Below are positions 1-4,022 of a stretch of DNA of 4,055 nucleotides, in pieces (position 1 is the stretch's first letter; the number at the start of each line of letters is the position of its first letter). The stretch is from a virus (taxonomy: Duplodnaviria > Heunggongvirae > Uroviricota > Caudoviricetes). The notes under the pieces were generated by a model, which worked only from the letters and a program-made list of their open reading frames with translations, searched no databases and was not told the DNA's origin. A program made the translations under genes and the position numbers. The stretch is from IMG/VR virus record IMGVR_UViG_2690316099_000008. One strand, written 5' to 3'.

Positions 1-31
1 TCGCTCGCTCTCACCACTGAGCTAAAGGGCC
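1..31 (-). tRNA. 5' portion of a tRNA gene running off the left edge (acceptor-stem strand, D-arm, start of anticodon stem). Resembles Ile(CAU)-type tRNAs found downstream of Q in lambdoid/Stx-type phages; the anticodon lies outside the window.
   Basis: Minus strand from coordinate 31 reads GGCCCTT-TA-GCTC-AGTGGTGA-GAGC-G-AGCGA: 7-nt acceptor strand, U8, GCTC/GAGC D-stem with an 8-nt D-loop containing GG, then the anticodon-stem 5' strand. Similarity to Ile-type tRNA is from memory, not a search. Confidence 0.55.
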
Positions 32-68: not shown

Positions 69-96
69 ATAAAAAACCCGCTCGGCGGCGGGTGTC
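69..96 (-). terminator. Rho-independent terminator, distal copy: GC-rich hairpin followed by a T-run on the minus strand.
   Basis: Minus strand reads ACCCGC-CGCCGA-GCGGGT followed by TTTTTTAT. The 25-nt core is identical to the copy at 170..197. Confidence 0.6.
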
Positions 97-169
97 GAAA
101 AAGCCAGCAAGCTGAAAGACAGGTATTCACCGCCACCAGCGCGTTTACTGTACTGACGCGATTTCAGTC

Positions 170-197
170 ATAAAAAACCCGCTCGGCGGCGGGTTGT
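170..197 (-). terminator. Rho-independent terminator, proximal copy (tR'-like), about 40-65 nt downstream of the predicted late transcription start.
   Basis: Minus strand reads AACCCGC-CGCCGA-GCGGGTT followed by TTTTTTAT (7-bp stem, 6-nt loop, U-tract). It sits immediately downstream of the Q gene and the pR'-like promoter. Confidence 0.6.
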
Positions 198-230
198 AGA
201 AACTCTTCTAACGTCAGGCATAAAACGCCC

Positions 231-270
231 ATCGTTATGACGAATTTACCACAGATTCCGGAAAAATCAA
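231..270 (-). promoter_or_regulatory. Lambda pR'-like late promoter with a sigma70-dependent pause element; the Q-utilisation region.
   Basis: Minus strand: -35 TTGATT (270..265), 16-nt spacer ending in TGg (extended -10), -10 TAAATT (248..243), 6 nt, then AACGAT (236..231) followed by GGG. As I recall it, lambda pR' has the same TAAATT-N6-AACGAT-GGG arrangement. The predicted start falls on the Q stop codon. Confidence 0.6.
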
Positions 271-1089
271 CCTAGTTACCTTTTTTAACTGCCGCTCAGC
301 CCATGCTTCTTCAATATCAAACCGGGTCACCAGCGCATCATAAAATTTCTTAACTGTTTTTTCCCATGACGCGCGTGTTATCTGGTTTGTCACCTCGCAT
401 ATAGCATTAAATGCCTCCGTTGATGGTAGTCTTTCATAGCCACGACCACCACAACGCTGGCAGTCTCTGATAACAGGCATACCACGTTTTACCGACTCTT
501 CACGATGAATGGCGACACCACGCCCACGGCAATCCTTACAGGCGGTGGAAACCTCACCCTTTCCGCCACACTCCGGACAGGCAACTTTTACCACCTCCCT
601 GACTTTTTTCCATTCTTCCCAGTAAGACGGATACACACCTTTCGTACACTTTGCCCATACCGGCGGCTTACCATCCGGATACTGGACCTTGTTTGTAAAA
701 ACTACGCTTTCAATAAATTTTTCCCCATAGCAACAAGGGCACTGCTTTTTACTCGCTGCGCTGCGGGCATAATCCTCAAAAGCGTACGAAGCCATAATGC
801 GCATCACTACCGGTTTTATTTCTGCCGGAAGTTTTCTCAACGCCGCCACACGATCGCACCGACTGAGTGCATAATCTGCCAGTAATTCTGTTGCCCGCGC
901 CCTGTCATTCATACTGATGCCCATTTTCCCCAGGAACGCAGAAAACCCCATCTCAGCCCGATTCTGTGTCATGCCCTGCGCGGCCATCACATCAGTGATA
1001 CTCAGCGCATCTTTCGACGTTGAGGCCGATGCATCAGTCAGGCCGGGGGATTTTGGGGAGTAGTATTTCGGTAAATCTTCCAGTTTCAT
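235..1089 (-). CDS. Q: Late-gene antitermination protein Q-like (284 aa) with a Cys-rich zinc-binding region.
   Basis: Intact 284-aa ORF. Position is diagnostic: directly downstream of rusA (ATGA start/stop overlap) and directly upstream of a lambda-like pR'/pause element and terminator. Contains CPCC plus three CxxCxGxG repeats (aa 117-213). Family assignment rests on synteny and recalled similarity to Q82/QuuQ-type prophage antiterminators, not on a search. Confidence 0.7.
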   Translation of the reverse strand: MKLEDLPKYYSPKSPGLTDASASTSKDALSITDVMAAQGMTQNRAEMGFSAFLGKMGISMNDRARATELLADYALSRCDRVAALRKLPAEIKPVVMRIMASYAFEDYARSAASKKQCPCCYGEKFIESVVFTNKVQYPDGKPPVWAKCTKGVYPSYWEEWKKVREVVKVACPECGGKGEVSTACKDCRGRGVAIHREESVKRGMPVIRDCQRCGGRGYERLPSTEAFNAICEVTNQITRASWEKTVKKFYDALVTRFDIEEAWAERQLKKVTRLIFPESVVNSS

Positions 1090-3787: not shown

Positions 3788-3840
3788 TGGATTTGCCCCT
3801 ATATTTCCAGACACCTGTTATCACTTAACCCATTACTGGC
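3788..3840 (-). mobile_element. IS2 right terminal inverted repeat (outer end at 3788, element interior toward higher coordinates), running into the N gap.
   Basis: Plus strand TGGATTTGCCCCTATATTTCCAGACACCTGTTATCACTTAACCCATTAC is the reverse complement of the IS2 right end as I recall it. It lies 104 bp upstream of the helicase start codon. Confidence 0.75.
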
Positions 3841-4022
3841 NNNNNNNNNNNNNNNNNNNNNNNNNNNNNNNNNNNNNNNNNNNNNNNNNNNNNNNNNNNN
3901 NNNNNNNNNNNNNNNNNNNNNNNNNNNNNNNNNNNNNNNNNNNNNNNNNNNNNNNNNNNNNNNNNNNNNNNNNNNNNNNNNNNNNNNNNNNNNNNNNNNN
4001 NNNNNNNNNNNNNNNNNNNNNN
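3841..4022. other. Assembly gap (182 N).
   Basis: Run of n characters; presumably the collapsed IS2 body and/or unknown sequence. Confidence 0.95.

Follow-up and report, generated by a model that had tools for sequence, protein, structure and literature searches.

The question raised by this locus is whether a short stretch near one end of the window, by which we mean the whole of the 4,055 nucleotides analysed (IMG/VR record IMGVR_UViG_2690316099_000008; all coordinates refer to it), holds a late promoter of the lambda pR' type with its pause element, and whether the gene whose end it touches encodes a Q antiterminator; both had been proposed in an earlier note made from the letters alone. 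Sequence comparisons make it very probable that the site serves a lambdoid prophage as its late promoter (pR') and as the utilisation site of an antiterminator of the Q-lambda family. There is nothing unusual in its presumed mechanism; the element is found very widely in E. coli and belongs to a long-armed branch of that family. The features concerned are the following.

235..1089, minus strand: gene for the 284-aa Q antiterminator; Pfam PF03589 (Antiterm), 7e-55
274..281, minus strand: single copy of the 8-bp tandem unit AGGTAACN; two copies are usual in relatives
265..270, minus strand: -35 hexamer TTGATT, invariant among close relatives
249..264, minus strand: 16-nt spacer TTTCCGGAATCTGTGG, candidate Q-binding element (QBE), of a class common to 62 loci
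250-251, minus strand: extended -10 TG, within the spacer (the bases before the -10 are TGG)
243..248, minus strand: -10 hexamer TAAATT, the same as the lambda pR' -10
237..242, minus strand: CGTCAT; with T243 it occupies the place of the lambda -35-like TTGACT, to which it is a weak match (TCGTCA)
231..236, minus strand: predicted sigma70-dependent pause element AACGAT (-10-like), the same in lambda and P22
228..230, minus strand: GGG at +7 to +9, discriminator-like; its counterpart stabilises the lambda pause
220..221, minus strand: predicted pause at +16/+17, placed from the sequence and the behaviour of lambda
210..213, minus strand: CGTT at +24 to +27, complementary to +1 to +4 (AACG); possible 5'-terminal stem, paired in the minimum-energy fold
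170..195, minus strand: intrinsic terminator tR', first copy, with a 7-bp GC-rich stem and a T run; at the same place (+44) in relatives
70..93, minus strand: second copy of the terminator, a duplication found in none of the loci compared
1..31, minus strand: 5' portion of a tRNA gene truncated where the window ends (Rfam partial tRNA match); relatives annotate tRNA-Ile or tRNA-Met

The reading frame at 235..1089 is the only long one on the minus strand at the promoter. Its product is 31% identical to lambda Q over the full length of the latter, with residues 1-113 aligning to lambda 1-113 and residues 182-273 to lambda 116-207, and it matches the lambda Q structures PDB 7ubm, 4mo1 and 7ubj; by its PF03589 domain and its homology to 7ubm and 4mo1 it belongs to the Q-lambda family. 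The earlier note was right in calling the 284-aa protein a Q antiterminator, while the promoter, in its view the strongest functional evidence for this, is not required for the identification, as direct homology already shows the protein to be Q. E. coli TK3889, a complete genome, has the same 855-nt gene annotated. Q-lambda proteins make up PF03589, and Q21 (PF06530) and Q82 (PF06323) are separate families (PMC9388147); a Q of the lambda family leads one to expect a lambda-like utilisation site, not one of the 82 or 21 kind.

Our first suspicion, identity with the phage 82 pR'/Q82 system, was rejected, because the window Q is PF03589 and its hexamer lies at +1 to +6; a phage 21-type pR', in which Q21 (PF06530) acts as a dimer on a direct-repeat QBE, was likewise discarded, the Q being PF03589. 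Phage 82 pR' does resemble the window in having its QBE within the promoter, followed by a sigma70-dependent promoter-proximal pause and then a terminator, but its Q (PF06323) shows no sequence relationship to that of the window. The phage 82 pause element, which has an extended -10, is displaced 9 bp downstream, and the polymerase pauses there at +25/+26 (PMC5001585), a layout that the window does not fit.

Where lambda Q has its zinc-ribbon arm, the window Q carries a 68-aa insertion with extra CxxC motifs. The inserted residues are 114-181 (window 547-750), with CxxC and CxxCxGxG motifs and a sub-threshold match to the DnaJ zinc finger (29 bits versus a cut-off of 32.7). Since the tip of the lambda Q arm touches both the QBE and sigma region 4, the larger arm may alter the geometry of the tip at these contacts.

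Read on the minus strand from 270 to 228, the window has TTGATT-N16-(TGg)TAAATT-CGTCAT-AACGAT-GGG, with every element in the order and at the exact spacing first described. The layout TAAATT-N6-AACGAT, given in the note for lambda pR', also proved right to the base: the lambda sequence (J02459) has TTGACT-tattgaataaaattggg-TAAATT-tgactc-AACGAT-GGG, and from the hexamer on AACGAT-GGGTTAATTCG. The window shares with lambda and P22 the -10 TAAATT, the 6-nt gap, the AACGAT and the GGG at +7 to +9, all identical, as well as the gene order Q, promoter, pause element, terminator and late genes; as in lambda, the Q homology extends over the whole length of the protein. Within the window the pattern TAAATT-N6-AACGATGGG has a single match, even when two mismatches are allowed; the number expected by chance is 0.01, and only one of 200 dinucleotide-preserving shuffles had any. 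A generic promoter scan found nothing at the site, where the consensus score is 8/12 against a threshold of 9. This miss is uninformative and not a negative result; lambda pR' itself would reach 9 of 12 on the same score. The extended -10 TG of the window, absent from lambda, may compensate for the weak core.

Considered as a member of this class of sites, the window has a sigma70 -35/-10 pair with a spacing of 16-18 nt directly after Q, a -10-like element at +1 to +6, placed 6 nt after the -10, whose second base is A and whose sixth is T, a G-rich +7 to +9 and an AT-rich stretch before the predicted pause. The GC-rich run at +7 to +11 (GGGCG) followed by the AT-rich TTTTAT is a pattern that recurs throughout the family, and U17/G18 together with G8 of the window transcript match the G-10 Y-1 G+1 pause consensus. 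The role of the GGG as a discriminator-like element has been described for lambda and phage 82 (PMC5001585). What the window lacks is the -35-like TTGACT found in lambda 1 bp upstream of the pause element, the place at which sigma region 4 is repositioned (PMC9388147): the window TCGTCA agrees with it at 3/6 positions and with the consensus TTGACA at 4/6. Close relatives have TTGCTC or TTGCCC at this position. The family as a whole does not keep the -35-like hexamer, and TTGACT may be specific to lambda and P22. The window also departs from lambda in its -35 (TTGATT versus TTGACT), its extended -10, its spacer (16 nt versus 17 nt, unrelated in sequence), the 68-aa CxxC insertion and an 11-aa C-terminal tail of Q, and a terminator ~45 nt from the start rather than ~190 nt.

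The start of transcription can be predicted from P22. In the P22-pbi record (the P22 Q is gp23) P-late, the qut site, the 5' end of the late RNA and the terminator are all annotated, at positions homologous to those in the window, and the 5' nucleotide marked there is the first A of AACGAT; by homology, the window start would be position 236. Another known relative is the K-12 cryptic prophage Qin, where ydfT (QuuQ), 40% identical to the window Q, is followed by TTTGCA-N18-TAAAAT-TTTTTC-AACGAT-GGG and a terminator; transcription from this site would start at NC_000913.3 position 1,642,422, minus strand. It differs from the window in having another spacer class, a Q of only 250 aa, and cspF and cspB instead of tRNA genes between the site and the lysis genes.

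How widely the arrangement is kept was examined at two levels. The cassette that takes up the opening 1.1 kb of the window, from the tRNA through terminator, promoter and Q to the edge of rusA, is covered to at least 80% in 2478 of 5426 complete E. coli genomes; phages such as mEp460_ev081 carry it as well. The wider comparison sets consisted of 18-19 phage and prophage loci and 80 IMG/VR loci found by Q alignment, with Q proteins 28-99% identical. In nearly all of these ~100 loci Q is followed by a -35/-10 pair, a [CT]AAnnnT hexamer, usually with GGG after it, and a terminator; the gap between the -10 and the hexamer is 5-8 nt and usually pyrimidine-rich, the commonest hexamer is AACGAT followed by GGG, and the motif lies mostly outside any coding sequence. 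It could not be placed after Q in Fels-1, Providencia PSTCR3 and mEp013. When the 56 distinct initial transcribed regions were aligned, A2 and T6 of the hexamer were the only invariant columns; they are invariant in all 80 IMG/VR loci and all 38 metagenome contigs, and with the hexamer left free in the search AA..AT is kept in 79/80 and 38/38, respectively. A2 and T6 correspond to the pair of -10 bases with which sigma region 2 makes specific contact.

Other searches yielded little: one-genome-per-species contigs contained only 2 related loci, the literal motif AACGATGGG returned only unrelated primer matches from the literature, a literature search on quuQ gave nothing relevant, and a NET-seq paper on sigma70 pauses leaves prophage late promoters unmentioned. 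The database records examined for this type of Q carry no annotated late promoter, start, pause or terminator.

In lambda the QBE is located between the -35 and the -10 (PMC4914094, PMC9388147), and the difference between the corresponding spacer of the window and that of lambda had been noted as consistent with another Q specificity. The spacers of the family fall into classes: TTTCC[CG]GAA..TG.G with 62 loci, the window included, AAGTGGCGAT... with 16 and AATGACGAAA... with 8, and further classes formed by lambda with P22 and by Qin with Stx2k. Identity between Q proteins is at least 50%, 75% and 64% within the 62-, 16- and 8-locus classes, respectively, whereas between classes it has a mean of 51% and a maximum of 63%. 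The helix-turn-helix region of Q carries sequences specific to each spacer class. The window spacer, unrelated to that of lambda, is of a class that tracks both the Q clade and the helix-turn-helix sequence; this co-variation, which is a correlation, is what one would expect of a QBE and fits the idea of a different Q specificity. The initial transcribed region and the terminator, for their part, reassort among spacer classes. On inspection the window spacer shows no obvious direct repeat. In many relatives of the same spacer class (L239-L300) the -35 (TTTACT) is preceded by an inverted repeat, ATAGCTCAC..GTGAGCTAT, that ends at this hexamer or overlaps it; this repeat, which the window does not have, might be a terminator of the Q transcript or a protein-binding site.

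Should the steps established for lambda (PMC5001585, PMC9388147) apply here, sigma70 RNA polymerase would start at A236, and sigma region 2, still bound to the polymerase, would read AACGAT (+1 to +6) on the non-template strand, aided by the GGG at +7 to +9. Scrunching would follow, and then a pause near +16/+17 (window 221-220). Without Q the polymerase would escape and stop at a terminator ~45-65 nt downstream, leaving an RNA of ~66 nt; with Q, bound at the -35/-10 spacer and loaded onto the paused complex, it would read through the terminator or terminators into the tRNA, lysis and late genes, as these are laid out in relatives.

Counted from the predicted start, the terminators of the window lie at +44 and +145 and the tRNA at +206. 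The hairpin of the first terminator occupies 195-176 and is followed by its T run, which sets the predicted RNA length of ~66 nt. In relatives the genes downstream on the same strand are those for tRNA, holin and lysin. ARAGORN reported no tRNA in the window, whose edge cuts the gene, and an Rfam search at a permissive threshold gave sub-threshold matches only (Trp leader, 22 bits versus 41; isrK, 16 versus 50; partial tRNA). Short transcripts from pR' are constitutive in lysogens and can act as sRNAs (PMC7547250). The predicted constitutive ~66-nt RNA, ending at an intrinsic terminator, resembles in this respect lambda 6S RNA, StxS of Stx phages and IsrK of Gifsy-1, and would be a by-product of antitermination control. 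No Rfam family matches it at threshold (IsrK, 16 bits against a cut-off of 50), and the StxS phages use a different Q, although they have the terminator and the downstream module in common with the window.

The terminator and ~100 nt after it (window 93-195; locus L102, 1150-1420) are also found in Stx2a phages at 89-94% identity. These phages encode an unrelated Q of 126 aa, and the shared segment places a mosaic boundary between the pause region and the terminator. The double terminator is peculiar to the window: it is absent from ~160 related loci and from the complete E. coli genomes, where the best coverage is 94%, in two pieces. The two copies (within window 70-195) are 102 nt apart, and the duplication links the tRNA-bearing module to one that elsewhere leads into a small ORF and a gene for a DNA methylase. 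With its join at CGACA|CCCGCC, where only 3-4 nt of sequence are shared, it may be an assembly artefact.

Further irregularities are found elsewhere in the window. Ends of an IS3-family element, probably IS2, occur near 1845-1879 and 3789-3840, where they abut a single n (1880) and a run of N (3841-4022). One of these ends interrupts a rusA-like gene, and the other is found a little upstream of a DnaB-like helicase gene; together with the N positions they point either to the joining of contigs in a draft scaffold or to IS insertions. There is also a second, ~90% similar copy of the 5' part of rusA, an 85-aa ORF and the 3' end of the helicase gene (1460-1845 versus 2038-2420; 1881-2038 versus 1303-1460), which represents either two related prophage segments side by side or two that were scaffolded together. 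With its insertion-sequence ends, N run and unique terminator duplication the window is a draft scaffold, and this copy of the site may sit in a decaying or mis-assembled prophage.

The -35 and -10 do lie inside the 3' end of the Q gene, as first noted, the ORF at 235..1089 reaching past the promoter. From this it had been concluded that the Q coding sequence overlaps its own utilisation site. The overlap stands, the stop codon TAA at 237-235 covering the first two bases of AACGAT; it is not a design feature, being the result of the loss of one copy of an 8-bp repeat. Most relatives read ...AAAAAGGTAACTAGGTAACAAGG-TTGATT, that is, two copies of AGGTAACN, and in them the Q stop TAA falls in the second copy, so that Q has 273 aa and ends 5 nt before the -35. 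Contraction from two copies to one removed this stop codon and added 11 residues: the window frame runs for 11 extra codons (LIFPESVVNSS) across the -35, spacer and -10 to the TAA at +1, and the tail comes directly after the conserved C-terminal VTR. Two copies are found in mEp460, in most IMG/VR loci and in 38/38 metagenome contigs, and three in one locus (L026). The one-copy form is a minority, seen in about 10% of IMG/VR loci; among the entries that could be scored, drawn from two fetched sets that overlap, it makes up 12 of 158, and among the metagenome contigs 0/38. E. coli TK3889 (complete genome) has it too, and this form, with its 284-aa Q, turns up on several different Q haplotypes and is followed by either of two downstream modules. 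One IMG/VR contig (L075 = L150) has an N within the repeat region (equivalent to window 271-281). A sequencing error as the source of the 8-bp deletion was considered and rejected, as a complete genome and several independent contigs carry it. The Q/promoter overlap is thus real but secondary, a by-product of repeat contraction as judged from the sequences of relatives. Lambda Q refolds its residues 195-207 into a helix, in which L202 and T206 contact the flap tip of the polymerase (PMC9388147). The tail of the window Q starts right after the residues equivalent to L202 and T206, and by analogy may impair this copy.

Variation within the pause element was followed across 81 near-identical loci, aligned over 942 nt that span Q, the promoter and the initial transcribed region. 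By parsimony, changes are most frequent at +3 (14 steps), +11 (7) and +4 (6), the next site anywhere having 5, figures to be read with a shallow tree, possible recombination and loci that are not independent; in the window these hot spots are 234-233 and 226 on the minus strand. Different hexamers are found on identical Q haplotypes, and many of the changes move towards the consensus TATAAT, whereas positions 2, 5 and 6 never changed among near-identical prophages (L003-L084, L103-L182 and L304-L341). With the hexamer left free, the counts for the IMG/VR loci were AACGAT 41, AATGAT 15, AACAAT 7, AATAAT 6, AACTAT 5, AAAGAT 5 and GATGAT 1, and an independent scan of 38 metagenome contigs gave AACGAT 13, AACAAT 11, AATAAT 6, AATGAT 6, AAAGAT 1 and AACTAT 1.

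The first 4-5 bases of the transcript are also complementary to a segment about 20 nt further along. In the window 236-232 can pair with 213-209 on the minus strand, and in 86% of the 56 distinct family sequences +1 to +4 have a Watson-Crick partner in the region of about +16 to +27, compared to 7% in shuffled sequence and 0-2% for neighbouring 4-mers. The two arms co-vary as classes (AACG:CGTT, AACA:TGTT, AATGA:TCATT, and AAGGA:TTCTT in YeP1); in a structure-blind MAFFT alignment 77% of the cells pair, versus 50% or less for slid partners, and two-sided changes occur in 14 cells, a level reached by 0/500 shuffles. RNAalifold found no consensus helix in the family alignment, the class of ES18 and S149 has its TGTT in the loop of a stronger hairpin, and in close relatives changes at +3/+4 are without compensation downstream. 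From these comparisons the complement could be an RNA stem, a DNA dyad or a matter of shared descent.

That the pause element is under two further influences, acting at the hot-spot positions and through 5'-end pairing, is put forward only tentatively. Changes at the hot spots could serve in nature to set the strength of the pause and the loading of Q, or they could be traces of damage to non-template bases left exposed where the promoter of a lysogen is constitutively open and paused. The pause element could also double as the 5' arm of a terminal stem stabilising the short RNA or the late mRNA.

These results can be weighed against other interpretations of the site. The idea that a chance resemblance to lambda pR' happens to fall inside the end of a coding sequence gains something from the individual weakness of the core hexamers, but with 0.01 matches expected, and with position and spacing conserved across ~100 loci in which the motif is mostly outside coding sequence, its probability is negligible. 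One could also envisage an ordinary constitutive promoter, free of Q control, that serves the downstream tRNA genes or a small RNA, since pR' is active in lysogens and its short RNAs can be sRNAs (PMC7547250), and tRNA genes do lie downstream; the one or two strong terminators that separate promoter and tRNA, the constant association of the element with a Q gene, and a spacer that tracks the Q clade make this highly improbable. Hardly more credible is the proposition that AACGAT is conserved mainly as the 5' arm of an RNA stem or DNA dyad with CGTT, and not as a sigma70 pause signal. The frequency of the complement and the co-varying arm classes are what one would then expect; however, T6 lies outside the stem and is nonetheless invariant, A2 and T6 are exactly the bases read by sigma, the GGG at +7 to +9 is conserved too, RNAalifold gives no consensus helix, and the changes at +3/+4 go uncompensated in close relatives. 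The stem and pause roles are, moreover, mutually compatible.

The remaining alternative accepts the site as a genuine pR' by descent and holds that this copy is no longer functional, giving only the short terminated RNA or nothing. The 11-aa extension after the conserved VTR, next to residues that in lambda (195-207) refold and touch the flap tip, the IS3-family ends and N run inside the replication-gene region, and the dominance of the two-copy AGGTAACN form (38/38 metagenome contigs) can all be cited for such a loss. Nevertheless we consider it unlikely: the 284-aa form is found repeatedly, on more than one Q haplotype and ahead of two different downstream modules, the one-copy form exists in a complete genome with an intact downstream lysis cassette, and the promoter and pause bases of the window are all intact.

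For the prophage family, the reading of the site as a working lambda-type pR' would mean that the textbook sigma70-dependent pause of lambda, acting as a loading dock for Q, has had its elements kept base for base in prophages carried by nearly half of the complete E. coli genomes. In practical terms the late promoter, start, pause element and terminator can be marked with confidence when these prophages are annotated. The larger zinc-finger arm of Q and the different presumed binding site offer natural matched Q/QBE pairs for the study of specificity, and the hot spots and the 5' complement bear on how pause strength may be tuned in nature.
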